Position numbers and translations under genes: made by a program. A DNA stretch of 40,062 nt from sequence record DRR723986_10657; one strand, given 5' to 3'. Each line of letters starts with the position of its first letter. Position 1 is the first letter of the stretch. This document shows positions 78 through 35,628 of the stretch, piece by piece. The notes under the pieces are model-generated. The model did not search any database. It worked only from the letters and a program-made list of their open reading frames with translations, and had not been told where the DNA came from.

Positions 78-1754
78 TTACTCGATTCGTAGGGTATGGG
101 CGAATTTGCCTACCTTCTCTTCAGGCAGCGTGACGTGGAGAGCATCTTCTGCCCACTCAAACTCAAGTTCTTCCGTGCCGCCGAGCAGTCGGATTGAGTC
201 AATTTCTTTTGGTGCATGCTCAGCCCCCTTCGCAAACGACTTAATGGAAACCGACCCGTCTTCTGGCCATTCGAGGAGAATTGCATAGAGAGCTTCGGGC
301 TTCGAAGTGAAGCGAATGTCTTTCGACGTGAACGGCTTGTCTTTTTTCTCCGCTAAGTGACCCGTCGCCGTTCCAGTCGGCCCCTCGCCGTAGACGCTCC
401 AGTGCGTTGATTCGTAAATTGCCTCTCCATTGACTTTGAGCCAGGAGCCTATCTCGCGTAGGATCTCCTGATCCGCTTCAGGAATGGTGCCGTCGGATCG
501 AGGGCCAACGTTCAGGAGCAGGCAACCGTTCTTGGCGACAATATCCACCAAGTCATCGACCAAACGACCGGCGGTCTTGTATTTCTGATCCCGCGTGAAT
601 CCCCAAGAGCTGCTACTGATGGCGGTATCCGTCTGCCAGAAGGGCTTGCGAATCGCCGCCATTTTGGATCGTTCAAGATCAAGAACAGCCGCAGCTTCCG
701 GAAATGCCTTCCATTTGTAATTGATCACACCAGCTTCGCCGCCATTCTGACTCTTCTTGTTGTAATAGTAGGCAGCAAACTTCTGCAGGTACGGAGAGTA
801 GTGGTTGTCTTCGAAACTCGTTTCCTGCGTCGCTGTAATGCCAAAATCAAACCAGACTAGATCCGGATCATACTTGTCGACTATTTCGCAAGTCCTGGCC
901 AGCCAATCGCGCTTAAACTGTTCATCTTGCGGTTCGAAACGCTCCCGGTAATCAGCCGCGTCCTCCTTGAACAGGAACGGCATCGGGCGCCCGTAGAGGC
1001 CGCTGAGCTTTGGATCTGCGTTGTCAAAATCCGCCCGCCGAACGTAGTACTTCCAATTGAAAGCCCGGTGACTACTCAGCCCAACCCGCAAACCACGACT
1101 CCGCGCCGCAGCAGCCAACTCGGCGATGATATCTCGACGCGGCCCCATTTGAGTTGCGTCCCATTCGGTGAAACTGCAGTCGTACATGGGAAAACCGTCA
1201 TGGTGTTCAGCAACCGGCACGATGTATCGCGCACCGGCATCTTGGAAGAGCTGGATCCACTCTTGCGGATCGAACTTCTCGGCTTTGAACTGCGGAATGA
1301 AGTCCTTGTACCCAAACTCTGCATGTTTACCGTATGTCTTCAAATGATGCTCATAGAAGTTATCACCCCGACGCACCATATCGATATACATCTGCCGCGG
1401 ATACCACTCACTTCCGTACGCAGGAACGCTGTAAACGCCCCAGTGGATGAAGATGCCGAATTTCGCATCTTTGTACCACTGAGGAACTTTGTAGGACGAA
1501 AGCGATTCCCAACTCGGCTCAAACGGCCCCGCTGCGATTTCTTGATCTATTTCTTCAATTGCACCAGCGACGGCGGGATGTGGTGGCCATTTCGCATCTG
1601 AGGCCCGCGTGCCCGATTCCTGGGAATAGGCGGGTGTGCCAAAGAACGAGACGGCACACAGCACTGCGATGAGGACGTGCGAGCATGCCGCTTGCCGTTG
1701 ACGCCGGCCGAAAAGACAAGAGTTGCGTCGGAGCGGGAGTAGATTGTTCGGCAT
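78..1754 (-). CDS. Secreted GH29 glycoside hydrolase (alpha-L-fucosidase family; possibly an alpha-L-galactosidase)
   Basis: GH29 motifs WYKDAKFGIFIHWG, AEHHDGF, LVWFD (nucleophile Asp) and LLLNVGPRSDGTIP. Signal-peptide-like segment (VLIAVLCAVSFFGTPAYS). The ORF is open to 1823, but ATG 1754 avoids overlap with the upstream gene. Confidence 0.9.
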   Translation of the reverse strand: MPNNLLPLRRNSCLFGRRQRQAACSHVLIAVLCAVSFFGTPAYSQESGTRASDAKWPPHPAVAGAIEEIDQEIAAGPFEPSWESLSSYKVPQWYKDAKFGIFIHWGVYSVPAYGSEWYPRQMYIDMVRRGDNFYEHHLKTYGKHAEFGYKDFIPQFKAEKFDPQEWIQLFQDAGARYIVPVAEHHDGFPMYDCSFTEWDATQMGPRRDIIAELAAAARSRGLRVGLSSHRAFNWKYYVRRADFDNADPKLSGLYGRPMPFLFKEDAADYRERFEPQDEQFKRDWLARTCEIVDKYDPDLVWFDFGITATQETSFEDNHYSPYLQKFAAYYYNKKSQNGGEAGVINYKWKAFPEAAAVLDLERSKMAAIRKPFWQTDTAISSSSWGFTRDQKYKTAGRLVDDLVDIVAKNGCLLLNVGPRSDGTIPEADQEILREIGSWLKVNGEAIYESTHWSVYGEGPTGTATGHLAEKKDKPFTSKDIRFTSKPEALYAILLEWPEDGSVSIKSFAKGAEHAPKEIDSIRLLGGTEELEFEWAEDALHVTLPEEKVGKFAHTLRIE

Positions 1755-1809
1755 AGTCAGACTCGCAAAGCTGGATGGAAGGAAGAGGAAACCGAGGAAA
1801 CGCTGCCCG

Positions 1810-2838
1810 TCAATTGACCGCAATCATCGCTTTGAGAACACCTGAACTCGGCTCCAACCACTGATCAAAAACGCCAACGACATCGTCGAAGTCGGCGCGG
1901 TGGGTAATCCAAGGCTGAGTGTCAATCTTGCCCGTCTGAATCAACTCGATGATCCTACGAAAGTCACCGGGCAGGGCATTTCTACTTGCCAACAAACTCA
2001 GCTCACGACTGTGAAAAATTGGTGCGTGAAGAAACTCTAGCTTGTTCTGGGTAATCCCGACGTAGACAACTCTGCCAGTAAACGCGGCGAATTCGAATGC
2101 CCGCGTCATACTGTGATTGTTGCCCGTTGCATCAACGATCACGTCTGCCAACCGCCCACCGCCAGCACTGCGAACCAGGTCGATATCCTGTTCTTCGCCA
2201 GTGATCAAGACGGTGTGCTCAACGCCCATGGTTTCCCGAACGAACTGCAGCCGCTGTTCATTGACATCTGCGACGATCGTTCGAGCGCCGGAGAGCTTAG
2301 CAAACTCAACGGCCGACAACCCAATCGGTCCGGCTCCGATGATTAAGATGTTCTCTCCAGGCTGCGGGTTGCCTCGATTGACCGCGTGGCATCCAATTGC
2401 CAACGTCTCGACCAACGCCGCTTGCTCATAAGTCAAATCGCCGACCGGATGTAGTTTCCGCGCCGGCAAATTTACTTGGTCCGTTAGCCCGCCGTCACAC
2501 ATGACGCCAAAGGTCTGATTGTGTTCGCAGCAATTCGTGTTTCCACGCAGGCAAGAATCACACTTCTGGCAGTTTAAATATGGCTCGACGCAGCATTTTT
2601 GCCCCACGGAAAGTGAATCAACTCCCTCCCCGAGCTCCAGAATCTCTACGCCAAGTTCGTGCCCCGGAATTCGAGGGAATTCGAAAAAGGGAAAGCGACC
2701 CAAGTAACAGCCGACGTCTGTCCCGCAGACTCCCATGCTGTGAACACGCACACGGACTTCTCCAGGTCCCGGTTTAGGCGGTTCTGGAATATCGATCTGT
2801 GCCCAGGACTTCACGGCATTGATTTGCAGTGCCTTCAT
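1810..2838 (-). CDS. Zn-dependent medium-chain dehydrogenase, L-galactonate/L-gulonate 5-dehydrogenase-like (YjjN/LgoD-like)
   Basis: GVCGTD and GHE catalytic Zn motifs, structural Zn CxxCxxCx7C, Rossmann GAGPIG, and HSRELSLLASRNA typical of the YjjN-like group. Substrate inferred from context. Confidence 0.85.
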   Translation of the reverse strand: MKALQINAVKSWAQIDIPEPPKPGPGEVRVRVHSMGVCGTDVGCYLGRFPFFEFPRIPGHELGVEILELGEGVDSLSVGQKCCVEPYLNCQKCDSCLRGNTNCCEHNQTFGVMCDGGLTDQVNLPARKLHPVGDLTYEQAALVETLAIGCHAVNRGNPQPGENILIIGAGPIGLSAVEFAKLSGARTIVADVNEQRLQFVRETMGVEHTVLITGEEQDIDLVRSAGGGRLADVIVDATGNNHSMTRAFEFAAFTGRVVYVGITQNKLEFLHAPIFHSRELSLLASRNALPGDFRRIIELIQTGKIDTQPWITHRADFDDVVGVFDQWLEPSSGVLKAMIAVN

Positions 2839-2899
2839 ACTACTCGCTTCATACTGATTGATTCGGGTGCATTCGTCGCTGTAAGCGATGCTGACGATT

Positions 2900-3838
2900 C
2901 TAGTTGTTTTCCGCCAAGCCTTCTTGGTGGCTGACGTTGTGAACCGGCTTCAGGATCTCAAGTACCTCAGCCAGCAAAGTTCGGTCGATCGGCTGATCAA
3001 GCCAATGCGCCCATTTGCGAATATTGTCGGGATTTGCGCTTCCCGTAATCGTAGTCGCCAAGTCCGGATGCTCGCATGAAAACTGCAGTGCAAGCTGCGC
3101 GATGTCAACACCCTGCTTGTTGCAATGCTCAGCGGCACGTTTCGCCGTGGCCTGCACCTCAGGTGAATCTCGATGCCATTCCGGCAGCGTCGCGTTGGTT
3201 AGAAGCCGAGCAGCAAATGGCCCCGCATTCATCACACCGATTTGCTTTTCCTGCATCGCAGGCAGGACGTCATCGACCAGCCGGGTGTTCTGCAGTGTGT
3301 ATTGGTTGTAAGACAGAATGCAATCAATCTCTGCCTGTCGAGCGACTTCCGTGAAAATTTTCATCGGATATCCACTGATTCCAACATACCGCACCTTCCC
3401 AGACTCTTGAATCTTCCGAAGTGCGGGTAGCGTTTCGTTGATGATTTGATCCAGTGGAACAAATTCGATGTCGTGACACAGAATGATGTCCAGATGATCT
3501 GTCTTCAACCGATGCAAGCTAACGTCTACGCTCTCGGCAACACGCTTGGCCGAGAAATCAAAGTGATTTGCATCAAACCGCCCCAGCTTTGTGCACAGCA
3601 GATAATCATCGCGAGGCACATTCTTGAGCTCGACGCCCAATAAGACTTCTGACATTCCTCGACCATAGTATGGCGAAGTATCGATTAAGTTCATGCCTAG
3701 CTCGAGTGCCAGACGAACGCTTGCGAAAACCTCGTCTAGACTGACGTCGCGAAATTCTGCTCCTAGCGACGAAGCGCCGAAGCTCAAAACGGGAAGTTCT
3801 AAATCAGTTTTGCCAAGCTTACGTTTTGGAATGCTCAT
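2900..3838 (-). CDS. Aldo/keto reductase, L-galactose dehydrogenase / D-threo-aldose 1-dehydrogenase-like
   Basis: LSFGASSLG, IDTSPYYG, TKLGR, HDIEF and ETLPAL...GKVRYVGISGYP closely resemble the L-galactose dehydrogenase AKR subgroup. Confidence 0.85.
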   Translation of the reverse strand: MSIPKRKLGKTDLELPVLSFGASSLGAEFRDVSLDEVFASVRLALELGMNLIDTSPYYGRGMSEVLLGVELKNVPRDDYLLCTKLGRFDANHFDFSAKRVAESVDVSLHRLKTDHLDIILCHDIEFVPLDQIINETLPALRKIQESGKVRYVGISGYPMKIFTEVARQAEIDCILSYNQYTLQNTRLVDDVLPAMQEKQIGVMNAGPFAARLLTNATLPEWHRDSPEVQATAKRAAEHCNKQGVDIAQLALQFSCEHPDLATTITGSANPDNIRKWAHWLDQPIDRTLLAEVLEILKPVHNVSHQEGLAENN

Positions 3839-3895
3839 CAGTAATCTTTCTTGCGATCCGGAAGACGTGTGAATACGGAATGGTTGAGGAGCCGC

Positions 3896-5143
3896 CTAGC
3901 CCAAGAACAGTGGCTTCAAGTGACGGTCGAGGATATTCTTCGTCACTTGCTGTCCGACGATTTCTTCATTCGCCTTCAGCATGTTCAAGTACCGGTCACC
4001 GGCGTTGGCAGCAATCTTGAACGACACGTGCAAGAGCTGGCGCACATGTGCGTTGAAACGAGCATCACCAGGAATGTGTCGAATTGTTGCGGCCATCGTT
4101 TCGCCATCCCAACCGCCGACAGTTTCTGGTGTCGGTAGCTTGCTGGCATCAATGTCGATCACGCTTGCGTATGGAGCACACAGTTCATCAACATGTTCGA
4201 AAGCGTAAACGTAGATTTCTTTGGCGAGTGCCAAGCCATCTCCGCCGGCTTCCGACAAGCCAATTAACTCCTCCAACCAAGTCGTTCCGGCCGTCTTCAC
4301 GTGAACTCCCGCACCGGTTTTCTGAAGTGCGTCTCGAATTGCAGGATAGATACTGAATTTGTCACTTCCGGAGTGCACGCTCAACTTCAGTGTGTCAGGC
4401 AAGCCGTAACGCTTGACGGCGACATCGATGACCGCGATGTCTTCATTGAACTCCCGTGCGAACTGTTCAACGTCGCCGACGTAATCGACACCTTTGTTGA
4501 ATCGCCCGGTGAACTTTGGAGCAATTGTCTGGAGTTCGATCTTCTCGTCAGCAAGTGCGGCCAGAATAACCAGCAGCTCAGGAGGAGTCTGCGGCGAGTC
4601 TGTCTCATCCATGGAGACTTCTGCAGCGAAGTTATCTTCACCTTTTTCCGATGCAATGTGACGATAGATATCACCGGCTGACTGGCATGCCCCTAGGAAT
4701 TGCCGGGCCACCTTGATAACAAAGTCGCGATCGATTTCGTAGCTTGTTCCAGTGCCTTCAAGCTCGAGAGTACCGAGTAGTTCAGGGTGGGCATCTGCAA
4801 ACTTCTCAATTTCAGCCTCGTCAACACTGGTCCCGATCGCGTCGGCCACGTCGATTGTGAAAAAGTCGGAGCAGGGCAGGTAGGGCGCCACTGTCGCCAT
4901 CTGAATATGGTCCGCGTCCACGTGCCAAGACCGGGACCATCCCAGAGATTCGACCGCCTCCGCTGCTGCCGCCTTCACGCTAGGTGGCTCGGAACCGACA
5001 AACCCGTGCTCGCGATTCGACTTATTCCAGACTGGAGTCACTTCGACACCAAGTTTCTCAAGCTCTTGGAATGCGCGAAGTTGCGCACTGGCTTGATGAG
5101 CAAAACGGTCGCCAACGCCAAACGTAAATTTGTCGAGTTTCAT
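3896..5143 (-). CDS. uxaE: Tagaturonate/fructuronate epimerase
   Basis: Motifs FGVGDRF, DADH, EVSMDET, APKFTGRFNKGVDY, KLSVHSGSDKFSIY and HVKTAGTTWLEE. Start moved from 5179 to ATG 5143, which is preceded by GGAGAAACT (SD). Confidence 0.88.
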   Translation of the reverse strand: MKLDKFTFGVGDRFAHQASAQLRAFQELEKLGVEVTPVWNKSNREHGFVGSEPPSVKAAAAEAVESLGWSRSWHVDADHIQMATVAPYLPCSDFFTIDVADAIGTSVDEAEIEKFADAHPELLGTLELEGTGTSYEIDRDFVIKVARQFLGACQSAGDIYRHIASEKGEDNFAAEVSMDETDSPQTPPELLVILAALADEKIELQTIAPKFTGRFNKGVDYVGDVEQFAREFNEDIAVIDVAVKRYGLPDTLKLSVHSGSDKFSIYPAIRDALQKTGAGVHVKTAGTTWLEELIGLSEAGGDGLALAKEIYVYAFEHVDELCAPYASVIDIDASKLPTPETVGGWDGETMAATIRHIPGDARFNAHVRQLLHVSFKIAANAGDRYLNMLKANEEIVGQQVTKNILDRHLKPLFLG

Positions 5144-5297
5144 AGTTTCTCCGTCCAATTGTGTAATTTCCGACCACATTGTTAGCTACTGCAGTGCTAA
5201 AATCCATAGCCGATACCGACACGAGCATGTCTATTCTAAACCTGCATTGAAGTTAGCCTGTAGTTCCCACGAGAGGTCACCATGACTGATTGGACCA

Positions 5298-6254
5298 ATG
5301 CCTAGAAAACGGATCGCCTTAACAGAAAACCGCTCAGAAAATGAAGCCTTCGGTGCCAGCGGAACTGCCGAAGAACCGGACTTTGTCTCGCGGCAAACCT
5401 ATCAGACTCGCCGTTTTTACCTCAATCTTCGCCCAGATCCCGATGCCTTGATCGCACTGGTTTGCGGCGGCGTTGAGCGAATGCGACCGAACTACTTAGT
5501 AGATCGCACTGATTTTCCTTTTTACGCCCTGGAGTGGGTCACCGAAGGCCGCGGAACGATCCGATACGGAGCAACCGAATACGCGCTCCACCCCGGTGTG
5601 CTGTTCGCATACGGGCCGAACGTGCCACACACGATCAGCAATGATCCTGACGCAAGTATGCGCAAATACTACTTGGACATCTCCGGCAAGGACGTTGAAT
5701 CAACCCTACAAGAAGCTGGTTTGCTCGACCGGAAACCGATTCACGTTGGTCGGACAATTGAACTGGTCGAGTTGTGGAACTTGCTTGCCAGCGAAGCCCG
5801 CGAGAATACAAACTACTCGACGGCGATTTGCACCTCGCTCCTTCAAGTCCTGCTGATGAAAATTAAGCAGCAGAGCGTTGCGTCGGAGCGTTTCGACACA
5901 CAAGGCGCTGATACAACTTCGTTTCGTCGCTATGAAGCAATACGAAAATCGATTGAAGCAGACTTCCTCCAATTGAGAACAGTCGACGACGTCGCAAAAC
6001 AGCACGGCATTACACCAATTTACTTGTCGCGGCTATTTCGACGTTATAGCAACACCGGCGCTTACCGTTTCTTGCTCAGATTGCGTATGAACCATGCCGC
6101 TGAACTGCTCATGGAGCACGGCATGTTGGTTAAAGAAGTAGCGCAGGAATTGTCCTACTCTGACGCGTTTCAGTTTTCGCGGGCGTTCAAGCGCGTGTAC
6201 GGGGTTGCACCTTCACAACTAAATGCAACGTCCAAATACCTTGGTCACCACTGA
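5298..6254 (+). CDS. AraC/XylS-family transcriptional regulator, divergent from the uxaE operon
   Basis: N-terminal cupin-like domain and C-terminal double HTH (YLSRLFRR...LRMNHAAELL...VAQELSYSDAFQFSRAFKRVYGVAPS). Confidence 0.92.
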   Translation: MPRKRIALTENRSENEAFGASGTAEEPDFVSRQTYQTRRFYLNLRPDPDALIALVCGGVERMRPNYLVDRTDFPFYALEWVTEGRGTIRYGATEYALHPGVLFAYGPNVPHTISNDPDASMRKYYLDISGKDVESTLQEAGLLDRKPIHVGRTIELVELWNLLASEARENTNYSTAICTSLLQVLLMKIKQQSVASERFDTQGADTTSFRRYEAIRKSIEADFLQLRTVDDVAKQHGITPIYLSRLFRRYSNTGAYRFLLRLRMNHAAELLMEHGMLVKEVAQELSYSDAFQFSRAFKRVYGVAPSQLNATSKYLGHH

Positions 6255-6328: not shown

Positions 6329-7186
6329 TTAGCCAAAGCGGCCAGTCACGTAGTCCTCGGTTTCCTTCAGACGCGGGTTGGTAAAAATCTGACTGGTCGG
6401 ACCGTATTCAATCAGTCGCCCAAGGTACATGAACGCGGTGTAGTCACTGATTCGGGATGCCTGCTGCATGTTGTGCGTGACAATCAGAACCGTGTATTCA
6501 CCTCGGAGATCGTCAATCAAGTCTTCAATTTTTCCAGTCGCCAGAGGATCCAACGCAGAACAAGGTTCATCCAAAAGCAAAACCTCTGGATCACTTGCGA
6601 TTGCACGAGCTATGCAAAGCCGTTGCTGTTGGCCGCCGGACAGCCCAAGCCCGCTCTCGTTCTGTCGCGTCCTAACTTCATCCCAAAGTGCCGCCCCCTT
6701 TAAGCTCTGCTCACAAACCTGACTGAGGACTTTCTTGTCTCTCTGGCCGTCGATTCGCAGCGGGTAAACGACGTTCTCAAAAATCGACATCGGGAATGGG
6801 TTTGGCTTTTGAAATACCATCCCCATTCGCTTGCGCAGTTCAATAACGTCGACACCAGGAGCAAAAATGGATTCGTCAGCGAGCCGAATATCGCCGCGTG
6901 TTGTAAGCCCATCAATCAAGTCGTTCATGCGATTGACGCTACGCAGCAGCGTGGATTTCCCACAACCACTGGGACCAATCAACGCGGTAACTTCCCCACG
7001 GGGAATCGGCATCGAGATGTTATAAAGAGCTTGTTTCTTACCATACCAAAGGCTGAAATCCTTCACCTCCAGTGCTGCATCCGCTTCGTACACTTCAGGA
7101 TGGATTTCGGCATCAACGGCCTTGCCAGATGCAATTGCCTCGAGCCGATTCTGCTCCGTCGCCTGGGTTTCGTTGTCGCCGGTCAT
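6329..7186 (-). CDS. pstB: Phosphate ABC transporter ATP-binding protein
   Basis: Walker [53 protein letters not shown] and C-terminal YVTGRFG. Confidence 0.97.
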
Positions 7187-7269
7187 GATGATTTCGCCGA
7201 TGTGTTATCTAAGTGTCAAGCTACTACGAATGCTTGCTCTAACGTTCAAGCACCGAGGCCGGCTAGACA

Positions 7270-10137
7270 TTAAAACTGGTTGCCTTGGAAGCGACGTTTC
7301 AGCCTAGAACGGAGCAGAATCGCCACTAAATTCAGAACCGCAACAATTGTGATTAACAACAAAGTACATGTGAAAACTAGTGGCACTGCCGCGTCACTGT
7401 TTTGACTTTGGAAGCCCATCACGTAAATCTGGTAACCCAGGTGCATGAAGCTTCGTGATAGGTGGAAGAATGGAAACTCGGTATCCACAGGTAGGTCGGG
7501 AGCCGATGGTAGGGCACCGACCAACATCAACGGTGCAACTTCGCCAGCACCGCGAGCCATCGCCAAGATCGCACCCGTAAGGATACCGGGGCGTGCGTGA
7601 GGCAGAATGATGCGTCGAATTGTCTGCCATTTGCTGGCACCGCAGGCAAGTGAGCCTTCTCGCAGTGAATTGGGCACCGCAGCAAGGGCTTCTTCAGTGG
7701 CGACGATCACAACAGGAAGTGTGAGCAAAGCCAGCGTCAAAGCTCCCCATAACAACCCACCTTTGCCGAACGTCGGATTGGGCAGGTAAGCCTGATAGAA
7801 TCCGTCAAAGAACGGACTCTTCAAAATCAAGGCAGCAAACAAACCAATACTTACTAACCACAGTCCCAAGCAAAAACGACTGATCAATCGTTTCGTTTTC
7901 GGAGTTTGTTGGGGTGAGCCAGTATAGAAGAAGCTGAAGAAGAAGGCGGCTGTTCCGGTGCAAGCCGTTACCGCAAGGAAGACGAACCAAATGTTCGGCG
8001 GCCAGGGATTGATGTCCGCATTCTTGGGGCCACCATCCACATACGCGCCGATGGTGTAACAGAAGAACGAGAAACCAAACACACCGTAAACAATCGAGGG
8101 CACTCCGGCCAAGTTGTTGATCGATATGCGGATGATGGAAACCAATGGCCCCGCACCGGCATACTCACGCAAATACAGGGCAGCCATAACTCCGAACGGG
8201 ACGACAGCAATCGTCATCAGCAGGGTCATAACAATCGTGCCCCAAATCACCGGGAACACACCGCCTTCGGAATTCGCTTCACGAGGATTCTCGGTCAGGA
8301 ATTCTTTCCATCGATCAAGATAGACCGACCACTTTTGACCGAAACTTAATTGATTGACCGAGACCAAGCGAACAATCTGCTCAGCAGGAATCGTCTCTAC
8401 CGTGTTGGAGACCAAGTTACGCGCAGTCGCTCCGACAGCCAGGGTGCTTGAAATCGAAATGGCTTGTCCGCTTTCGTCCAAAGCATCCAGCATTGCAAGG
8501 GAATCGGACACCACTGTTATGCTTACTGAGTCATCAACGACCGCGATCCCAGCCGCCTTTAATGCATCAAGGGAATCTTGCCCAACCTCTCCAGTCGCCA
8601 CCTCGTCAGCAACACTCGTCAACGTCGCATCCAAGACTGAGGAGCCATTCGGCACGGCAAAAGCAACACCGATTCGCGTTAGCTCTTCCTCGAGTTCCTC
8701 AATTCTCTCTTGAAGTGGTTGCTTCTGTTGGAAGACTTCTGAGTAGCCGTCACAATAGCTGCTGAGCGCGTCCTGAATCGGCTTTTCAGCCTCGGCGGAA
8801 AGCTGCAGCCACTGATCCACTTCGTTGTTAAGCGACTCCAAACGACTCGGCAAGGCTTCCTCGACTGCCAACTCGACGGCATCTTGCAAACCTTCAACCT
8901 CAAGATCCTTGTCACCGGAGTCCAAGTACTCGCTGAGCCGCTCGAGTTGTTCCTCCACTCGCACGCGTTCTTCGAGCTGGAAGTGGATTGCATCGGGTTG
9001 TTGTGATGAACGAGCGTCGGTGGACAACTCGGCGCGTCGAATATCCACTCGCAGTTCTGAAATCCTCAGATCCATGCGACTGACTTGGTACCGCAGATGC
9101 TCAAGCTCTCGCCGCGCATCAATCACTGCGGGGATGGCCCGTTGCAACCAGCGAGTCGAATTTTCCCTACCATGGTGAACGACGCGTGCGACCGAAAATC
9201 CATCCAGTAGAGTCTGTCGTGAATCTCCGTCTCCCCCGCCAGAGTCTCCCTCGTCGGCATCGGCAGCATCTTCTTCAGCCGATTCCTCTGCAGCATCTTG
9301 CCGTAAATCAGCGGCGGACACTTGCTGCCATGGACCAGACAATGAAGCTGCAACCTGGACGGCTTGATTCTCCTCCAGGTTTTCCGCGGCTTTGAGAGCC
9401 GAGGCTCTGGTGGCGGCCTGCTGTAAATCTGTGCGAACGGCATCCAACTGAGTCAACGCGTTGGAAATCGTTTCCCCATCCGCAGCTTGGTTGGCGGACT
9501 CAAGGGCTTCCTTCAGCTCATCTATCTGATCGATCGACGGATCGCCAAAGCCAATTTGCTCGGTGGCCAGGAGAGGGATACCGTAGAACCGCCCCCACTC
9601 AAGCCGCTCGACAACTGCCGCCCACGGGGGTGTGGAAATACTGCCCTCTTGTAGCAATGTCGAATCCATCCACCGATAATGGACCTGCGACAAGCGGTAA
9701 TTGCCCGTCCGATAGTAAGTACTGTACGTATCTTCGCCATCGGTTGAATCGGCGTCTGCAACAGGTTCGTTGGCTTCGGAACCATCGTCCTCGGAATCGG
9801 CTGAATCACCTTCCGCGGCATCATCGTCAGAAGCATCCTGCAAAACCATTTGGTTGGCATCGCCAGTGCGTCGTCCTTGTGGTTGCCCAATCTCTTGGGT
9901 GCCATCGCTGAGCACGAGCCAGTCAACTTGCTTTGGCCAAAAAGACGGCAGTCCTCGGTATAGCACCAATGTCAGCAGACTGATGATCATCGCCAAGCAG
10001 ACGACGAGCATTCCGCCAATCAGCCAAATCTGTGGCTCACCACGAGCGAGCAGCGAAAATCCGCTTTGCAGCGCCTTTCGCCGGTGCCGAGGTTTCTCTG
10101 CCTCTGAATTTGGAGCATCAGATGCTTGGGCAGTCAT
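7270..10137 (-). CDS. pstA: Phosphate ABC transporter permease PstA with a very large extracytoplasmic insertion
   Basis: PstA core NPREANSEGGVFPVIWGT, NLAGVPSIVYGVFG, EAA loop (EEALAAVPNSLREGSLACGASKWQTI) and ARGAGEVAPL. ATGA overlap with pstC. Confidence 0.92.
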   Translation of the reverse strand: MTAQASDAPNSEAEKPRHRRKALQSGFSLLARGEPQIWLIGGMLVVCLAMIISLLTLVLYRGLPSFWPKQVDWLVLSDGTQEIGQPQGRRTGDANQMVLQDASDDDAAEGDSADSEDDGSEANEPVADADSTDGEDTYSTYYRTGNYRLSQVHYRWMDSTLLQEGSISTPPWAAVVERLEWGRFYGIPLLATEQIGFGDPSIDQIDELKEALESANQAADGETISNALTQLDAVRTDLQQAATRASALKAAENLEENQAVQVAASLSGPWQQVSAADLRQDAAEESAEEDAADADEGDSGGGDGDSRQTLLDGFSVARVVHHGRENSTRWLQRAIPAVIDARRELEHLRYQVSRMDLRISELRVDIRRAELSTDARSSQQPDAIHFQLEERVRVEEQLERLSEYLDSGDKDLEVEGLQDAVELAVEEALPSRLESLNNEVDQWLQLSAEAEKPIQDALSSYCDGYSEVFQQKQPLQERIEELEEELTRIGVAFAVPNGSSVLDATLTSVADEVATGEVGQDSLDALKAAGIAVVDDSVSITVVSDSLAMLDALDESGQAISISSTLAVGATARNLVSNTVETIPAEQIVRLVSVNQLSFGQKWSVYLDRWKEFLTENPREANSEGGVFPVIWGTIVMTLLMTIAVVPFGVMAALYLREYAGAGPLVSIIRISINNLAGVPSIVYGVFGFSFFCYTIGAYVDGGPKNADINPWPPNIWFVFLAVTACTGTAAFFFSFFYTGSPQQTPKTKRLISRFCLGLWLVSIGLFAALILKSPFFDGFYQAYLPNPTFGKGGLLWGALTLALLTLPVVIVATEEALAAVPNSLREGSLACGASKWQTIRRIILPHARPGILTGAILAMARGAGEVAPLMLVGALPSAPDLPVDTEFPFFHLSRSFMHLGYQIYVMGFQSQNSDAAVPLVFTCTLLLITIVAVLNLVAILLRSRLKRRFQGNQF

Positions 10138-12788
10138 AGTTGGCTGGCCCTTTTTCGAAAGCGGATTCGCACAAATTCAGCCAAAGTGTTGGCAATCAAC
10201 GTAATGAAGAAGAGCACCAGAGCAGCGAGGAAGAGCGTGCGAAAGTGCGTACTCCCCTTTGCGGCCTCAGGCAACTCAGTGGCCAGTGCGGCACTCAGAG
10301 TCTTGAAGCCGTTAAAAATATTCCATTCCATGAGCGGTGTGTTCCCCGCGGCACAAAGCACCACCATCGTCTCCCCAACCGCTCGCCCGAGTCCGATCAT
10401 CACAGCACTAAACAATCCACTCATCGCACTCGGAACAACTACCCGCACCGTAGTCTGCCAGGGTGTCGCACCACATCCGAGTGAGGCACTTCGCAGTTGT
10501 TTTGGAACCGCTTGAAGCGCATCGTCGCTGATTGTGTAAATGATCGGAATCACGCAAAAGCCGAGGGCACCACCGACCAACAGGGCATTCTTATCTTGGT
10601 AGTCGTCAACGACGGTGCCGCGAAGGTCCAACCCGAACTGGGAAAGCATTAGCGAGATTCCCCACGCACCGGCCAGGACCGCGATGCTCGTCAGCAAAAA
10701 CCGACTGATGGAGAACAATGCAAATCCGCGTGGGCTTTTACCCGTTGCGTACTCTCGAATCCACGGAGCTAGCGGGCCACCGGTTAGCAAGACGGCAGCC
10801 AGGGTCAGAATGGGAATGAGTATCAGCATCCATCCACCAGTGCTTGAGGCTTCATCATCGCTCAGCCAAGCCACCAGATCACCAGAGAACATCCACGACT
10901 CAAAACCGTTGCCGAACCAATAGGCCAACAGGCACCCAAGTGGGAGGCAAACACACATCAGTGGCAAACGGAAGGCTTGCAAACGAACAAGCAGATCAAC
11001 CGGTAGCAGGCTCCACAAATGCCCTGCCAGCACGAATGTCACCGGGACGAGAACCAGGGCAGCGAGCACTGGCATCAAATGCTCTTGCAAATACGGGGCG
11101 ACAACCAATGCCGCGACGTACCCCAGCACAACGCTTGGCAGACTAGCCATCAACTCAACCAGCGGTTTGACGCGACCACGCATCTCGGAGCTTAGAAATT
11201 CACTGGTGTAGATTGCTGCCAGGATCGCCAGTGGGACACTAATCAGCATCGCGTAGACGGTGGCTTTCATCGTCCCAAAGATCAAAGGCATGAGGCTGAG
11301 CTTGATCTCCGCCTCCTCGGTCGCAGCGGACGATTGCCAGATATACTTCGGCGAGTCGTGCGCCTCGTACCACACCCGTCCAAAATATCCTTGAACGGAC
11401 GCCTCAGGGTGGCCAACATCAAAACTTGCCAGTTCGAGAGTTCCACTTGAGCTGGCGACCAGCATGTTTCCGTCCGGCCCTAGGCAAACGCTCGACAAAT
11501 CACCGCCGAGCGACGTCTCTCTGGAACCGAGAAAAGTGTTGTTGGTTACGTAAGCGAGCAATGCATTGCCACTGGAGTCGGCTGCGACCGCAACGTGCGA
11601 TTGCTTGCTGGACGCGACAGCAACAATCGGTGAACTGGAGATCTGGATGGAGTGAGTTTTCGCCAGCAGCAGACCGTCAGCGTTGATTGTGTTTTCGGTT
11701 TCTTCTCGAACAATGGCCCACCCCTGCAGTTCGCCAGATTCGGTGCCGCAGAGTAGCGTTTGGCGAGCCAGCAACATTCCAGCGCTGCGGAGTTCGCTGC
11801 CATCGGCGGTAGTACTCTGACTCTCCATCAGGGTGATCGAATCATCGCCGATTTCGAATCGATCGAGCGTTCCATTTGGCCAAGCAATGACGACTTGACC
11901 GCCACTGTTCATCGCCGCAAGCGTTAGCGGGCGACCATCCTGACTGCGAGCCGTAACCTCGGCTTCAATCAATTCCGTGCTCTCACGCACGCGGCCAAGG
12001 CGTTTGGACTTCGTTATCGTGCAGTGAACCAATTTGTTCTTCGTCAGGGCAACCGCATGATCGACTGTCGAACGCGCGAACCTGTTAGACGACGAACTAG
12101 GCAGGAAATCGACGGCGAGCACGGGCTCATCGGCAACCTCGTAAGCACTCGACCACTCCGGTTCTTCCAAACGCGTTTTTCTAGCGGTGTTGGAATCGAA
12201 CCACTGGTAGACCGTATCACCTGAGTGCGCGACCTTTTGCTCTTCGGTCACAAACTCCTCTTCAGGCAAATCGGCGTTTGCAATCAAGGCATCTTCAAAA
12301 GAGAGTTTTGCTACGCGAATTGTTCCATCGGAAAAACCGAGTGCAACAGTTTCACGGTCGATGGAAACATACGACGCAGTCACCTCAACTTCATCATCTT
12401 GATCAACGGGATACGTTGCGAGCAGTTCGCCGCCGATCGTCTCGCGGACTTCCACTGTCCCTTCGGCTGTTAGTCCCCAGGTCATTACTCCGTCAGCGTC
12501 GACACCAACAAAACTGTATTCTGGAACCTTGAGCGTGGTTGAGTCCTTGAAGTCAGGACCGTTGATCAAGGGCAGGGCGGTGCCGACCAAAACAAGCACG
12601 ACGAGAAGGATGGCGACAATGGTGCCAATGCCGCCGACGGCGATAACACGAGAAGCCAAGGCGTCGCCAAACTTAACGCTCCACGGCGTCTGTTTTCTGC
12701 GACTTTGTCCGGCATAAGATTTTCCGGCCACAATTCTTTTCCGCTCTTGGCAGTGCTTTCGCGTGTCGCGTTCACGTTCCGTGGACAT
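10134..12788 (-). CDS. pstC: Phosphate ABC transporter permease PstC with a large N-terminal beta-rich (propeller-like) extracytoplasmic domain
   Basis: WQSS...KLSLMPLIFGTMKA, ELMASLPSVVLG, DDALQAVPKQLRSASLGCGATPWQT and GRAVGETM. Lies between pstS and pstA. Confidence 0.92.
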   Translation of the reverse strand: MSTERERDTRKHCQERKRIVAGKSYAGQSRRKQTPWSVKFGDALASRVIAVGGIGTIVAILLVVLVLVGTALPLINGPDFKDSTTLKVPEYSFVGVDADGVMTWGLTAEGTVEVRETIGGELLATYPVDQDDEVEVTASYVSIDRETVALGFSDGTIRVAKLSFEDALIANADLPEEEFVTEEQKVAHSGDTVYQWFDSNTARKTRLEEPEWSSAYEVADEPVLAVDFLPSSSSNRFARSTVDHAVALTKNKLVHCTITKSKRLGRVRESTELIEAEVTARSQDGRPLTLAAMNSGGQVVIAWPNGTLDRFEIGDDSITLMESQSTTADGSELRSAGMLLARQTLLCGTESGELQGWAIVREETENTINADGLLLAKTHSIQISSSPIVAVASSKQSHVAVAADSSGNALLAYVTNNTFLGSRETSLGGDLSSVCLGPDGNMLVASSSGTLELASFDVGHPEASVQGYFGRVWYEAHDSPKYIWQSSAATEEAEIKLSLMPLIFGTMKATVYAMLISVPLAILAAIYTSEFLSSEMRGRVKPLVELMASLPSVVLGYVAALVVAPYLQEHLMPVLAALVLVPVTFVLAGHLWSLLPVDLLVRLQAFRLPLMCVCLPLGCLLAYWFGNGFESWMFSGDLVAWLSDDEASSTGGWMLILIPILTLAAVLLTGGPLAPWIREYATGKSPRGFALFSISRFLLTSIAVLAGAWGISLMLSQFGLDLRGTVVDDYQDKNALLVGGALGFCVIPIIYTISDDALQAVPKQLRSASLGCGATPWQTTVRVVVPSAMSGLFSAVMIGLGRAVGETMVVLCAAGNTPLMEWNIFNGFKTLSAALATELPEAAKGSTHFRTLFLAALVLFFITLIANTLAEFVRIRFRKRASQL

Positions 12789-13097
12789 TGTTTATACAAC
12801 GTCGAAAGAACGATGCTCGGTTGCTCAACCATTACAGAGGAAAAGCATCATCAAGGACGCGAGATCATAACATTTGGCTTCTAGCTTTGAACCCGCTTTT
12901 GGGCAGTTTGAACCAAATGAAACAGACTCTTAACGAACGGTAGGGAAAGTTTGTATCGATATCGCAAAGTCGACAAACCAACTCGCATCTAGCCAAGTTG
13001 CCCAACCATCAAAATCAAGGAGAATCGACAGCCATTGGACTCGCAAAGCCACCGATTAACGGCGATTCTGCGCTACCGTCGCGGCACCTGTATTTCT

Positions 13098-13139
13098 GGG
13101 AGCCAGCTATGCTTCCTCGATGGTAGGTAGCTGGCCCCC
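13098..13139 (-). other. GC-rich stem-loop 3' of pstS (mRNA stabiliser or attenuator candidate)
   Basis: On the - strand, GGGGGCCAGCUA pairs with UAGCUGGCUCCC (12 bp, one G-U). No U-tract follows, so it is not a classical terminator. Confidence 0.5.
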
Positions 13140-13191
13140 TTGTGTCTGACCGGGCGTCGAATAGCTGGCCGGCGATTCGGCCAAACTTAGG

Positions 13192-14154
13192 CTACTTTAG
13201 CCCAACAGAGGCCAAGGCTTCTTCAGCGATTTCGGCTGAGACTGGCAAGTAGCCATCTTTGACGACCTGGGCCTGACCTTGCTTGCTGTAGACATATTTG
13301 ATGAACTCAGCTCGCATAGGATCCAGCGGCTGGGTCGGGTTGTAGTTGACAGCCAGGTACAGGAAGCGCGAAAGTGGGTAATCACCGCTGTAGGCATTCT
13401 CTGGCACAGGAGCCACGGCGTCTTTTACATCGCCCTCAGAAACAGCAATCGCACGGACATCGGCAGTCTTGTAACCGATTCCGCTATAACCGATCCCGCC
13501 GCGATTTCCACCAACAGCTTGAACGACGCCAGCACTACCGGGCAACTCGCTCACCCACTTGCCGTAGTCGCCATCGCCTAGGACAACGTCTTTGAAATAG
13601 CCGTAAGTGCCACTTGCTGCATTACGTCCGTAACAAGTAATCGCCGGGCCGTTGGAGAAGAACGTCTTCCAACTATCCAGCCGCTGCTTTGAACCCATCT
13701 TCCGCGTGCTGGAGAAGATTGCGTCGATCTGCTCGAAGCTCAAGGCCTCGATCGGGTTATCCTTGTTGACGTAAACAGCCAGCATATCAATGCTCGTTGG
13801 CAAGATCGTGGGCTCGTAGCCGTACTTGTCCTTGAACTTTTTGATCTCAGCCGCCTTGGGCTCACGGCTCATTGGACCAAATGTTGCCTTGCCTTCGATA
13901 AGTGCTGGGATCGCATTTGAAGAGCCCTTGCCGTCCACCGCTGGCTTCACGCTGGGGTACATCTTCTTGAACTCTTCGGTCCAGAGCCCCATCATGTTGT
14001 TCATGGTGTCGGAGCCGACGGTTTCCAGGTTGGCCCCGGCGATGCCCGAAATTGCTTTGTATTTCGGCAGTTTGTCATCCACCGTCACTTTGTCCTGAGC
14101 CAAAACAGGACCTGACAGAAGCAGGAGGAGTGCGATCGCAGTTGACTTGTTCAT
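13192..14154 (-). CDS. pstS: Phosphate ABC transporter substrate-binding protein
   Basis: Signal peptide, VGSDTM, GKGSSNA, MSR, YGRNAASGTYGYF, GIGYSGIGY and YPLSRFLY. Confidence 0.96.
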   Translation of the reverse strand: MNKSTAIALLLLLSGPVLAQDKVTVDDKLPKYKAISGIAGANLETVGSDTMNNMMGLWTEEFKKMYPSVKPAVDGKGSSNAIPALIEGKATFGPMSREPKAAEIKKFKDKYGYEPTILPTSIDMLAVYVNKDNPIEALSFEQIDAIFSSTRKMGSKQRLDSWKTFFSNGPAITCYGRNAASGTYGYFKDVVLGDGDYGKWVSELPGSAGVVQAVGGNRGGIGYSGIGYKTADVRAIAVSEGDVKDAVAPVPENAYSGDYPLSRFLYLAVNYNPTQPLDPMRAEFIKYVYSKQGQAQVVKDGYLPVSAEIAEEALASVGLK

Positions 14155-14584: not shown

Positions 14585-15838
14585 TTAGATGTCGAAGAGA
14601 TCCAACGATTCATAGTCGCCGCCCAGCACTGGCCGGGGTTCTATTTCCAGCCATTCACGTAGCAAAGTGGCATAGAGCCGGCGGAAATCAACCGAGTACC
14701 TTACGTCACCGTCATCTAAGTCCTGAAGGTTTGGCGACTCGCCCAGAACTCCCCCTCGGACACGATTGCCGAGCATGAAGGCCGGAGCGGCAGCCCCATG
14801 GTCGGTCCCTTCACTGGCATTTTCACGAACTCGCCGCCCGAACTCGCTGAATGTGAACAGACACACTCGGTCCGCATCACCTGATGCCTCAAGCTGCCGC
14901 TGCAGCGCGGCCGTGGCTTCGGACCATGTCTGAAGTAGGCTGCGATGCGAATCCGCCTGGCGAGCATGAGTATCAAACCCATCCAATTGCACATAATAGA
15001 TTTGAGTATCCAAACCAGCGGCAATGAGCTGGCCAACAACCGACAACTTCTGCCCCAAGTCAGACTTCGGCGTTTGGGGCGACATCCCCTTCATATCAAT
15101 GGCCCCTCCGATCCGCTCGCTAGAAACCACAGCGCTGGAAGTGTTGGATTGAATGAAGCCAAGCAAATCATCGCTGGCTGGTTCCGCCACCGGTTCGCGA
15201 AGTAGCTTTTGCAAGTTCTCTCGTGCCTGACCGCGCAACTGAAACTCATCGACGCTTGCCAACGAGGGGAATGCTCGGCTGTTTGACGCCAAAGCCAGTG
15301 GTTGCTTCTGAGCACCTAAATGCATCGCAAAGGGATCACCTCCGCTCGATTCCAAGGTCTCTGCAGCTTGGCCAATCCATCCGCCGGTACGCCTATCCTT
15401 TGCAGCCGAACAGGTATGCCAGATATCCATGGATTCAAAATGGGATCGGTTGGGAGATTCATAACCAACGCCCTGGACAACCGCAAACTGCCCTGACTCA
15501 TAGCAATTTGCAAGCTCCTTCATCGCAGGATGCAACCCAGCCTCATCAGTCAGTCCCAGCACGTCGCCTTTGGGGATAGCAAGCTTTGGCCGCGAACTGT
15601 AGTATTCCTTGTCGGTAAATGGCACAACTGTATTCAGTCCGTCGTTGCCACCGCTGAGCTGCACGACAACAACGATTCGCTTGTCACCTCGACCACCGGC
15701 AGAATCCGCAGCTCCCTCCATCGACAGTGCTGCAGCACGAGCTAGAGAACTAGGAAGTGCAGCGTCGATTCCGAGAGCAGCGTATGCTCCGACACTACCA
15801 CCGAGCAAATTTCTGCGACTGAGCTTTTTGTTCAACAT
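14585..15838 (-). CDS. DUF1501 family protein (Tat-like signal)
   Basis: SRRNLLG, VVQLSGGNDGLNTVVP, PNRSHF, GFDTH, FSEFGRR and GTDHG. Start moved to MLNKK (15838) to avoid overlapping DUF1800; 15847 is also possible. Confidence 0.9.
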   Translation of the reverse strand: MLNKKLSRRNLLGGSVGAYAALGIDAALPSSLARAAALSMEGAADSAGGRGDKRIVVVVQLSGGNDGLNTVVPFTDKEYYSSRPKLAIPKGDVLGLTDEAGLHPAMKELANCYESGQFAVVQGVGYESPNRSHFESMDIWHTCSAAKDRRTGGWIGQAAETLESSGGDPFAMHLGAQKQPLALASNSRAFPSLASVDEFQLRGQARENLQKLLREPVAEPASDDLLGFIQSNTSSAVVSSERIGGAIDMKGMSPQTPKSDLGQKLSVVGQLIAAGLDTQIYYVQLDGFDTHARQADSHRSLLQTWSEATAALQRQLEASGDADRVCLFTFSEFGRRVRENASEGTDHGAAAPAFMLGNRVRGGVLGESPNLQDLDDGDVRYSVDFRRLYATLLREWLEIEPRPVLGGDYESLDLFDI

Positions 15839-15863
15839 ACTTCTCATCCAACCAAGAATTTTT

Positions 15864-17234
15864 CTAGCCCAACTGAAACTCGGGAAGCGTCGCCACTGCA
15901 TGCAACAGACGCTTGTATCGATTGTCGCCAGAGCCAGACAGTTCAATCAACTGTTGTCGACGCGCGTCGGTGATCGGTATTGCCAACAACTGACTCGCGA
16001 AGAATTCAACTGCCTCAACAGTTGAACGAACACCATGTGACTGGAGGTAATCATCGAGCGACGTGCCACCAAAACGCGTGTCGCCGGAAAATATTACTCG
16101 CTGCAGCATATTCGCGCGGGCGAGCAAGGTTGAAGAGTTGATCCATGCTCTTCCGCCATCCCAGCCCTTCACATTCGGTGGGAAGAACAGCGCCTGCCCT
16201 GAACGCTTTAGGTCCTTACCAAGTTCGACCATACTAGTTGTTACATCGAGACTTCGCAGAAAGGAAAACGCTAACTCAACAGGAGAACGCACCTTGCGAC
16301 CGACACTCTGTTCGCTGAAAAAAAGATTGGATTTCAACAGCATCGACACTGCGGGCCCGACATGCATCTTACTGTCGGCAATCTTGTCTGCGAGCGGTTT
16401 CAGGAGGCTATCCGGCGCACGAGGCTCGTCGCAAACAAAGGCGCGAAAAATCTTGCCGGCGATAAACATCGGGCACCTCGGCTGATCAACGACAATATCC
16501 ACCGCCTCCTCGCCGTCGAAATTCCCACTGGCCGCAAGTATTGTCTTTCGGCCACGGTCTTGTTGGTACTTATTTTTTCGAAATCGGTTGCTTCGGATAC
16601 TCCAACCGGTGAAGGTCCTTGCTAGCTCCTGAACGTCTTTTTCAGAGTAGTGGCCCTCGCCGAGACAAAATAACTCCATTAACTCTCGTGCAAAATTCTC
16701 GTTCGGATGCGCTTTTCGATTGGTTTCTGAGTCGAGGTAAATCAACATCGCAGGATCCTTTGCAACGGCTTGAGCCATTACACGGAAGTCCCCCAGGGCG
16801 TTGGTGCGAAAGAGCTGATTCTGCGCCCACATCATACCGACCTCTGACACTTTCTCTGCAGAAGTGGCGAAGTGGCCGTGCCACAGGAGCGTCATCTTTT
16901 CAACAAGCTGGCTCGGTGAATTCAGCAGTCGGTAAAGCCACGCGGAGGCAAGTCGCGAGGCATCGGAACTGGCAAGAACAGCTCTTGCAAGTTGCTCTGC
17001 CTGCCGATCAGCGTCCGATTCGGCGGCAGGGAATTCCGTGGCCTTGTCGACGTAGTCAGAGTAGTTCGACTGCGCAGACTCCTGCAGTTGTTCAGAATTC
17101 GCCCCGAAGCCGATCCGCCGCAGAGCGTGCTGCCAGAGTTCCCCGCTCAGCGTTCCGTTTGGTCCGAGTTTCTTGGGTCGCCAAGCCCAAGAGACGTCCA
17201 GGCTGTCCAGTCCCGCCATATTCGTCACTCTCAT
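15864..17234 (-). CDS. DUF1800 family protein
   Basis: EKMTLLWHGHFATS, PAMLIYLD, PNENFARELMELFCLG, ARTFTGW, PPNVKGW and PEFQL. Usual partner of DUF1501. Confidence 0.92.
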   Translation of the reverse strand: MRVTNMAGLDSLDVSWAWRPKKLGPNGTLSGELWQHALRRIGFGANSEQLQESAQSNYSDYVDKATEFPAAESDADRQAEQLARAVLASSDASRLASAWLYRLLNSPSQLVEKMTLLWHGHFATSAEKVSEVGMMWAQNQLFRTNALGDFRVMAQAVAKDPAMLIYLDSETNRKAHPNENFARELMELFCLGEGHYSEKDVQELARTFTGWSIRSNRFRKNKYQQDRGRKTILAASGNFDGEEAVDIVVDQPRCPMFIAGKIFRAFVCDEPRAPDSLLKPLADKIADSKMHVGPAVSMLLKSNLFFSEQSVGRKVRSPVELAFSFLRSLDVTTSMVELGKDLKRSGQALFFPPNVKGWDGGRAWINSSTLLARANMLQRVIFSGDTRFGGTSLDDYLQSHGVRSTVEAVEFFASQLLAIPITDARRQQLIELSGSGDNRYKRLLHAVATLPEFQLG

Positions 17235-26954: not shown

Positions 26955-27234
26955 GGCGTGGTCTCGGTGGAAGTCGGGATTAACGTTAGCTTTTCGTAAT
27001 CCCACCTACGATAACAAGCTCCGTCCCGGATCGCAATTTGCCTAGACAATTTGTGCAAGTGCCAATTTGGTGTTTCCCACACAAGGGAGGGGCCATTTGA
27101 AACCAGTTGCTAGGAAAATCGCCGTTAGCGCCCAGGGACACTTTGACGTATAAGGAGACTCTTTGAAACGATCACCAAGCAATGAGGGCTACTAGGGCGC
27201 AAGCACCTAGCTCAACTAACGGGAATTAGCGACA

Positions 27235-28027: not shown

Positions 28028-30360
<2,333 letters not shown>

Positions 30361-30364
<4 letters not shown>

Positions 30365-33877: not shown

Positions 33878-33937
33878 CTACGTGTTAGCTCTATGTCAGG
33901 GGAAAAGAGGCGTGCGCCGGCTCCATCGAGCCGGAAG

Positions 33938-35512: not shown

Positions 35513-35628
35513 TGGATTCCCCGCAAGGTATGACACAAGGCCCGCAGTTGCACGATCGTACAACCTATCTCGCGACGAATTCTAACCCAAAGCAGCTCAA
35601 GATTGGAGGCTACGCATAAACGTCGATA

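Follow-up and report, generated by a model that had tools for sequence, protein, structure and literature searches.

The left end of a 40,062-nucleotide stretch of DNA, sequence record DRR723986_10657 (hereafter the window), carries a gene cluster that we read, with a probability of roughly 0.78, as an AraC-controlled operon for the release and oxidation of L-galactose. Open reading frame (ORF) calls and a Pfam search place here four minus-strand ORFs, which encode a UxaE-family epimerase, an aldo-keto reductase (AKR), a Zn-dependent medium-chain dehydrogenase (MDR; hereafter the Zn dehydrogenase) and a glycosidase of family GH29, together with one plus-strand ORF encoding an AraC-family regulator. 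L-galactose occurs in red-algal galactans such as porphyran, where it is present as L-galactose-6-sulfate, and in the pectin rhamnogalacturonan II; to our knowledge, Bacteroides vulgatus and one Luteolibacter strain are the only bacteria for which biochemical work has demonstrated its breakdown. Judging by the names of homologs, the host is probably a member of the Pirellulaceae.

Under the scheme that we propose, a secreted GH29 exo-alpha-L-galactosidase would clip terminal L-galactose residues from its substrate, which is likely to be an algal glycan resembling desulfated porphyran. Once the sugar has been taken up, by a transporter that is not among the visible genes of the operon, the AKR would oxidise L-galactose to its lactone with NADP+, and the lactone would open to L-galactonate, either spontaneously or by means of a lactonase encoded elsewhere. 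The Zn dehydrogenase would oxidise L-galactonate at C5 to give D-tagaturonate, which UxaE would epimerise to D-fructuronate; this may be reduced to D-mannonate, which would then yield either 2-keto-3-deoxygluconate (KDG), by way of UxuA, or D-gluconate, by way of a nickel-pincer epimerase. What each enzyme acts on, how the lactone opens, how the sugar enters the cell and all that follows fructuronate are predictions drawn from homology and gene context. A route from L-galactoside through L-galactose, L-galactonate and D-tagaturonate to D-fructuronate had been put forward in a preliminary description of this DNA, and each of its steps now gains the backing of closest characterised relatives and conserved synteny.

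What was observed directly is the order of the genes, the families to which they belong, their nearest characterised relatives, and the conservation of catalytic residues and of synteny. The preliminary description had the four enzyme genes running in one direction opposite the AraC gene, and all five were found in those places, with gaps of 57 nt between UxaE and AKR, 61 nt between AKR and Zn dehydrogenase, and 55 nt between Zn dehydrogenase and GH29 if the latter starts at the ATG at 1754; were GH29 to start at the TTG at 1823, it and the Zn dehydrogenase would share 14 nt. It had also described the operon as ending in UxaE. Transcription order instead has UxaE first and GH29 as the last visible gene, and so the operon begins, rather than ends, with UxaE. 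The window stops 77 nt past the GH29 stop codon; hence the operon may continue beyond position 1, as analogy with a syntenic locus (L092, below) would suggest.

An alignment of the short UxaE clade was prepared from a representative search (1730 representatives, E at most 0.001), and 80 loci from Planctomycetota, Verrucomicrobiota and Acidobacteriota were retrieved, all ORFs being clustered and one representative per cluster annotated. An AKR of this type lies within 10 kb of UxaE in 31 of these 80 loci and a Zn dehydrogenase in 22, and therefore the arrangement in the window is not a chance neighbourhood. Further neighbours are an IolO-like epimerase of the xylose-isomerase fold (19/80), an Amidohydro_2 lactonase (13/80) and a FucU-family mutarotase (9/80). 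The AKR and Zn dehydrogenase context is found in Planctomycetota and Verrucomicrobiota, with a divergent AraC gene in several such loci. Of 14 loci retrieved from a single verrucomicrobial genus by means of the AKR, ten had the IolO-like epimerase, AKR, Zn dehydrogenase and UxaE together, nine of these ten also having the Amidohydro_2 lactonase and four an Eda homolog close after the cluster. A family-level search of the Pirellulaceae found a UxaE match in 19 of 101 genomes, and GH29 was present in two of the 14 loci fetched. One of these, L092, is the nearest syntenic locus, consisting of a sulfatase, a divergent AraC gene and then UxaE, AKR, Zn dehydrogenase, IolO-like epimerase, a major facilitator superfamily (MFS) transporter, GH29 and a second sulfatase. 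The other, L089 (2107-10580), contains UxaE, GH29, a different AKR of 347 aa that the window AKR does not match, an MFS transporter, a sulfatase and a short-chain dehydrogenase/reductase (SDR), and may represent another way to handle the released sugar. The nearest UxaE (74%) belongs to a third locus, L088, beside a GH43-like gene and three sulfatases. UxaE genes of the Pirellulaceae thus sit in sulfated-glycan loci, and homologs of both porphyran exo-enzymes accompany the L-galactose enzymes.

Oxidation of L-galactose is assigned to the AKR, which matches PF00248 over residues 18-289 (174.6 bits, 3e-51). L-galactose dehydrogenases take the first five places among its solved relatives, at E values of 1.2e-90 to 9.4e-71, and the next family follows at 1e-32. 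The best of the five (E 1.2e-90) is bacterial-looking and has an N-terminus that nearly matches the published N-terminus of LguA from Luteolibacter LG18, an enzyme reported to prefer L-galactose 40-fold over L-glucose and to be without detectable activity towards L-fucose (PMC12632266). In the 14 verrucomicrobial loci, the N-termini of LguA and its partner LguD were not found in exact form, near matches being found in L135, where the AKR is approximately 45% and the Zn dehydrogenase approximately 49% identical to their counterparts in the window. No NCBIfam model scored above its cut-off for the window AKR, which we predict to be an NADP-dependent L-galactose 1-dehydrogenase.

The second oxidation falls to the Zn dehydrogenase, which is 37% identical to LgoD of Escherichia coli over 329 aa (E 1e-75), a score exceeding that of the best solved MDR (150 bits). 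The top three NCBIfam models are the same for both proteins, none being above cut-off. Its sequence contains a GAGPIG nucleotide loop as well as a Cys-His-Glu pattern and a cluster of four Cys residues; from textbook knowledge of MDR enzymes, we take these residues to be the ligands of the catalytic and structural Zn sites. The gene is adjacent to the AKR in the window and follows it in 21 of the 80 loci, with both within 10 kb of UxaE. We predict that it encodes an NAD-dependent, LgoD-like L-galactonate 5-dehydrogenase; the three known L-galactonate dehydrogenases are only distantly related to one another (PMC12632266).

The glycosidase matches Alpha_L_fucos (PF01120; 3e-108, 362.8 bits) and Fucosidase_C in Pfam. 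Among solved proteins, its best relatives are 7LJJ and 7LNP (exo-alpha-L-galactosidase) and 7SNK, that is, BpGH29 of Bacteroides plebeius, at 426-427 bits, whereas the best fucosidase match, 4ni3, reaches 286 bits. All four BpGH29 contact residues named in PMC9774334 (His68, Glu80, Val141 and Trp335) are kept in the window protein, although only Val and Trp could separate a galactosidase from a fucosidase, since the His and Glu are also common to fucosidases (PMC9774334). Following the ATG at 1754 is a signal-peptide-like start, in which a basic and then a hydrophobic segment lead to an Ala-Tyr-Ser motif, and the predicted product is a secreted exo-alpha-L-galactosidase.

Sulfatases accompany UxaE in some relatives. 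The sulfatase beside the AraC gene in L092 scores 507 bits against BpS1_11, the exo-L-galactose-6-sulfatase of B. plebeius, compared with 366 bits against a GlcNAc-6-sulfatase, and one beside a UxaE paralog in L002 scores 543-549 bits compared with 360. The window itself encodes no sulfatase of the BpS1_11 type. Its sole S1_11-type sulfatase (33938-35563), 32 kb away, was considered as the missing L-galactose-6-sulfatase and rejected because its nearest relative is the GlcNAc-6-sulfatase 5g2v (545 bits, against 334 bits for the exo-L-galactose-6-sulfatase). Directly downstream of it lies a second AKR gene (328 aa), a pairing that recalls the sulfatase and AKR of L089.

UxaE homology is beyond the family threshold by a wide margin (PF16257, 189.3 bits against a cut-off of 27.1), the match covering profile positions 74-474 of 475 with the N-terminal part missing. 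Homologs are almost all 415-417 aa long and match from residue 12-13, and hence the start is probably the ATG at 5143, giving 415 aa. Solved UxaE proteins, from Cohnella, match it distantly (E 7e-27); however distant, their catalytic Glu126 and Asp159 (PMC11194214) align with Glu57 and Asp90 of the window protein, and neither varies in any of the 104 clade members aligned. Allorhodopirellula solitaria has a second UxaE copy (L087, G001:C1:513718-514980) with one in-frame TGA within the match, which could reflect a broken paralog or a sequencing error.

The same UxaE clade also occurs in a second context. In Acidobacteriota and some Verrucomicrobiota it is accompanied by UxaC, GH28, an MFS transporter, an SDR and a nickel-pincer hexonate epimerase (NF052594, 661 bits). 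One such cluster, at L052:8619-9893, has counterparts in eight others of the 80 loci, mostly from Acidobacteriota (among them L048, L054, L056, L070, L075, L080, L081); this type of galacturonate locus, with GntR, UxaC, MFS, NF052594 epimerase, UxaE, SDR and GH28 genes, suggests a dehydratase-free hexuronate route. We estimated a tree of the short clade with FastTree from 104 rows, being the window and 103 loci, of which 14 had been fetched around AKR matches, so that the counts lean towards the L-galactose context. L-galactose-type context, with the AKR or Zn dehydrogenase beside UxaE, was assigned to 46 loci and the window, and galacturonate-type context, defined by an adjoining UxaC, GH28 or nickel-pincer hexonate epimerase, to 17 loci. 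The two are interleaved, with at least five changes of label, and one well-supported group of 28 combines 15 L-galactose-type with nine galacturonate-type proteins. Because both contexts yield D-tagaturonate, the simplest reading is that a single UxaE function serves two pathways.

The source of the sugar is the subject of some further evidence. DNA that is 95-99% alike covers 29 of 30 bins in one sequencing run labelled 'algae metagenome' and 23 of 30 in another, the runs belonging to two studies, and a contig from a third run is approximately 97.7% alike over 78-4915; runs X4 to X10 had small shares only and were left out. These matches offer a modest hint of habitat. The suggestion in the preliminary description that the operon would suit the use of red-algal galactans is accordingly strengthened on three sides: the glycosidase is nearest BpGH29, an exo-L-galactose-6-sulfatase homolog stands beside the clusters of relatives, and closely similar DNA recurs in algae metagenomes.

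What happens beyond D-fructuronate was approached by a search for downstream enzymes in the genomes of Haloferula rosea and four Pirellulaceae, five relatives in all. A match to UxuA was found in one genome, within an AraC-UxuA-Eda-PfkB operon, and a UxaA-like dehydratase in two, with galactarate dehydratase as best model, below cut-off. Four genomes contain a UxuB-like protein of the Mannitol_dh family that scores 381-410 bits against the fructuronate-reductase model and 140-149 bits against that for tagaturonate reductase, although all of these matches are below the NCBIfam cut-off and D-arabinitol dehydrogenase is a close second. The nickel-pincer hexonate epimerase (NF052594) is above cut-off in four, that is, in all four Pirellulaceae. 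No sugar genes surround the UxuB-like genes in three of the four genomes, nor the nickel-epimerase genes in any of the four, and so these neighbourhoods do not settle the exit route. Given the Mannitol_dh-family and nickel-pincer epimerase matches in relatives, reduction of D-fructuronate to D-mannonate is plausible. The UxuB/UxuA exit favoured by the preliminary description therefore divides: its reductase half is in keeping with four of the five relatives, whereas UxuA was matched in one and the nickel-pincer epimerase in four. Relatives of this epimerase in LarA groups 19 and 20 turn D-mannonate into D-gluconate, and group 18 has been hypothesised to act on a hexonate (PMC7583248). We tentatively suggest, as an idea that may well prove wrong, that Pirellulaceae possess a full, dehydratase-free route leading from sulfated algal L-galactans into central metabolism. 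L-galactose would be set free by an exo-L-galactose-6-sulfatase and the secreted GH29, and turned into D-fructuronate by the enzymes of the operon; a UxuB-like enzyme would reduce this to D-mannonate, from which a nickel-pincer hexonate epimerase of LarA group 18 would form D-gluconate for the pentose-phosphate or Entner-Doudoroff pathway. If true, no earlier description of what becomes of porphyran-derived L-galactose would extend beyond Bacteroidota, and LarA group 18 would gain a physiological role.

Several observations weigh against the assignment of this operon to L-galactose. No curated NCBIfam model names the Zn dehydrogenase, and most GH29 enzymes are fucosidases. Not one of the 80 wide-set loci, and two of the 14 from Pirellulaceae, have a GH29 gene next to UxaE, while L088, despite its close UxaE, has neither AKR nor Zn dehydrogenase within about 9 kb. 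Among ORFs of at least 150 aa, the window cluster lacks the lactonase, mutarotase and transporter carried by fuller versions; 38 of the 103 tree loci have neither an L-galactose nor a galacturonate context; and the matches to UxuA (1/5), UxaA-like (2/5) and UxuB-like (4/5) proteins in the five relatives are all below NCBIfam cut-offs.

Such observations leave room for other explanations, of which the best survivor, although unlikely, is a broader L-hexose operon, with a promiscuous AKR and Zn dehydrogenase that would in fact serve for L-glucose, L-gulose or several such sugars together instead of L-galactose. LguA and LguD do accept L-glucose and L-gluconate as well as L-galactose and L-galactonate (PMC12632266), and the IolO-like protein found in 19 of the 80 loci resembles a 5-keto-L-gluconate epimerase (212 bits against a cut-off of 300). 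However, this gene, which would be needed to convert 5-keto-L-gluconate to D-tagaturonate, is absent from the window cluster, LguA favours L-galactose 40-fold (PMC12632266), and the attached glycosidase resembles an L-galactosidase.

A role in L-fucose use is a little harder still to accept. Here GH29 would be a fucosidase and the AKR an L-fucose dehydrogenase, with the Zn enzyme and UxaE acting on L-fuconate and 5-keto-L-fuconate (6-deoxy-tagaturonate), which amounts to an undescribed 6-deoxy branch. The oxidative fucose pathway employs fuconate dehydratase, 2-keto-3-deoxy-L-fuconate (KDF) dehydrogenase and a hydrolase, and these were not seen among window ORFs of at least 150 aa. The predominance of fucosidases in GH29 (Pfam; PMC10154630) speaks for L-fucose, as does the presence in fuller clusters of a FucU-family mutarotase and of a lactonase best matched by the L-fucono-1,5-lactonase model (193 bits; cut-off 400). 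Set against this, the window GH29 is far nearer BpGH29 than any solved fucosidase, and the AKR is nearest to L-galactose dehydrogenases, LguA being reported not to use L-fucose (PMC12632266).

Very improbable, in our view, is that these are neighbours without a shared pathway, for instance a fucosidase gene beside unrelated dehydrogenases. The absence of GH29 beside UxaE from the 80 wide-set loci is what such an explanation would predict, whereas the common direction and 55-61 nt gaps of the genes, the recurrence of the AKR, Zn dehydrogenase and UxaE core across two phyla, and the return of GH29 in L092, as part of the same operon, and in L089, immediately behind UxaE, are not. Least credible of all is a UxaC-independent galacturonate bypass, in which the AKR would reduce D-galacturonate to L-galactonate in fungal-like manner for conversion by the Zn enzyme to D-tagaturonate and then by UxaE: the chemistry is feasible and the same UxaE clade does occur in galacturonate loci of Acidobacteriota, but the AKR groups with L-galactose dehydrogenases, the lactonase and mutarotase of fuller clusters fit sugar oxidation and not uronate reduction, and GH29 has no role in breakdown of the pectin backbone.

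An L-galactose operon remains the preferred reading, and its coordinates are given below with those of other features of the window. The operon and the AraC gene presumably have a common control region, the regulator being presumed to act as an activator of the operon. Homologs of the AraC protein, 44-48% identical, are divergent beside UxaE in L009, L016, L032 and L092. A promoter scan returned no sigma-70-like sites where 3.7 were expected, a result of little weight given a planctomycete host, and terminator-like sites were at chance level and uninformative (7 found, 7.5 expected).

Features of the window, with strand and the domains or remarks on which each assignment is based
Feature	Position	Strand	Domains or remarks
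GH29 glycosidase	78-1754 (ATG start); longest ORF to TTG at 1823	-	Pfam
Zn-dependent medium-chain dehydrogenase	1810-2838	-	ADH_N + ADH_zinc_N
Aldo-keto reductase	2900-3838	-	Aldo_ket_red
UxaE family, short 415-aa form	3896-5143; ORF reaching 5179	-	PF16257
Divergent intergenic region	5144-5297		presumed control region common to operon and AraC gene
AraC-family regulator with cupin sugar-binding domain	5298-6254	+	AraC_binding + HTH_18
pst phosphate-uptake operon	6329-14154	-
DUF1501 and DUF1800 gene pair	14585-17234	-
1274-aa protein	23181-27005	-	cadherin + He_PIG + dockerin
PSD/PSCyt multi-domain protein and DUF1552 gene	28028-31686	+	CBM60 match in the multi-domain protein
Second AKR and S1_11-type sulfatase	32891-35563	-
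893-aa protein	35629-38310	-	GGDEF + HD_5

Next to the AraC gene on the right is the pst operon, which is unrelated to the L-galactose genes. Its PstA-like (955 aa) and PstC-like (884 aa) proteins are approximately three times the usual length, and their long N-terminal parts are without a Pfam match except for one weak beta-propeller match. The DUF1501 and DUF1800 genes, like the pair formed by the PSD/PSCyt protein and DUF1552, are typical of planctomycetes; in relatives, too, DUF1501 and PSD1 genes turn up repeatedly in the vicinity of UxaE loci. The 1274-aa protein probably functions at the surface or in adhesion, and the 893-aa protein probably in cyclic-di-GMP turnover.

The operon can be described as published enzymes recombined into an arrangement not found in print, with functions that are predicted. 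The preliminary description knew of no characterisation of this combination; that holds for the whole, which we did not find in print, although the oxidative half (PMC12632266), UxaE, BpGH29 and the sulfatase have each been published. A UxaE exit joined to L-galactose oxidation was not found in a literature search that covered few subscription journals and excluded supplements; among the best-ranked papers, two reviews name both UxaE and L-galactose (PMC6353982, PMC7700177), the first of which handles them as separate topics. The operon would physically unite a BpGH29-type glycosidase with catabolic enzymes, with UxaE as the exit, and so provides a testable account of how marine planctomycetes might use L-galactose released from algal glycans. 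It would also give a specific predicted function to many cluster genes now called 'zinc alcohol dehydrogenase', 'aldo/keto reductase' or 'hypothetical' in Planctomycetota and Verrucomicrobiota, and its enzymes could serve for the conversion of L-galactose to tagaturonate or fructuronate.

Among known systems, that of B. vulgatus (Phocaeicola vulgatus) has a described gene set with neither UxaE nor a glycosidase, both of which the window has. Its L-galactose pathway, attributed to Hobbs et al. 2014, reportedly joins the UxaB/UxaA hexuronate route. The genes concerned, BVU_0219 to BVU_0222 as cited in PMC12632266, provide an L-galactose dehydrogenase, a lactonase and an L-galactonate dehydrogenase leading to D-tagaturonate, as in the route proposed here. 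Conversion of L-galactose through L-galactonate to D-tagaturonate is published for both this species and Luteolibacter LG18, and both are described as leaving it by a reductase and a dehydratase (PMC12632266). The lgu cluster of Luteolibacter sp. LG18, encoding a dual L-glucose/L-galactose pathway (Yachida et al. 2025, PMC12632266), has in common with the window an LguA-type AKR, a 5-keto-acid dehydrogenase (LguD) and D-tagaturonate as the hub. Its regulator LguR is divergent and annotated by Prokka as 'Btr' (PMC12632266); the window AraC gene is divergent too, and the Btr model is among its NCBIfam matches. The systems differ in their exits, LG18 reaching KDG through LguC and LguB, a reductase and altronate dehydratase of the UxaB/UxaA route (PMC12632266), whereas in the window, where no ORF of at least 150 aa belongs to the Mannitol_dh or UxaA family, UxaE holds that place; the name UxaE does not occur in the text of the LG18 paper (PMC12632266). 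Furthermore, the window lacks the LguG/IolO-like epimerase and has the added GH29.

UxaE of Thermotoga maritima and Cohnella laeviribosi (6IL9, 6ILA, 6ILB) belongs to the same Pfam family and shares with the window protein its catalytic Glu and Asp as well as the proposed reaction, between D-tagaturonate and D-fructuronate; in Thermotoga it bridges the galacturonate branch to the glucuronate branch (PMC6353982, PMC7583248). The window protein differs in its short form of approximately 415 aa, missing the first 70 or so profile positions and related to the solved proteins at E 7e-27, and in being fed, as we propose, by oxidation of L-galactonate, where the Thermotoga and Cohnella enzymes are fed by UxaC. 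Release of the sugar finds its parallel in the porphyran exo-cycle of B. plebeius, in which the exo-L-galactose-6-sulfatase BpS1_11 and the exo-alpha-L-galactosidase BpGH29 take part (bioRxiv 10.1101/2023.03.30.534863; PMC9774334). The likeness lies in the window GH29 and in the L002 and L092 sulfatases, each nearest its B. plebeius counterpart; unlike B. plebeius, this is a planctomycete without SusC/SusD, in which the glycosidase lies in one operon with cytoplasmic catabolic enzymes. Finally, the lgoRTD genes of E. coli supply in LgoD the 37% identical relative of the Zn dehydrogenase, in a pathway that starts from L-galactonate, taken up through LgoT, and leaves by UxaB/UxaA (PMC12632266); they include neither an L-galactose dehydrogenase nor UxaE, whereas the window has both.

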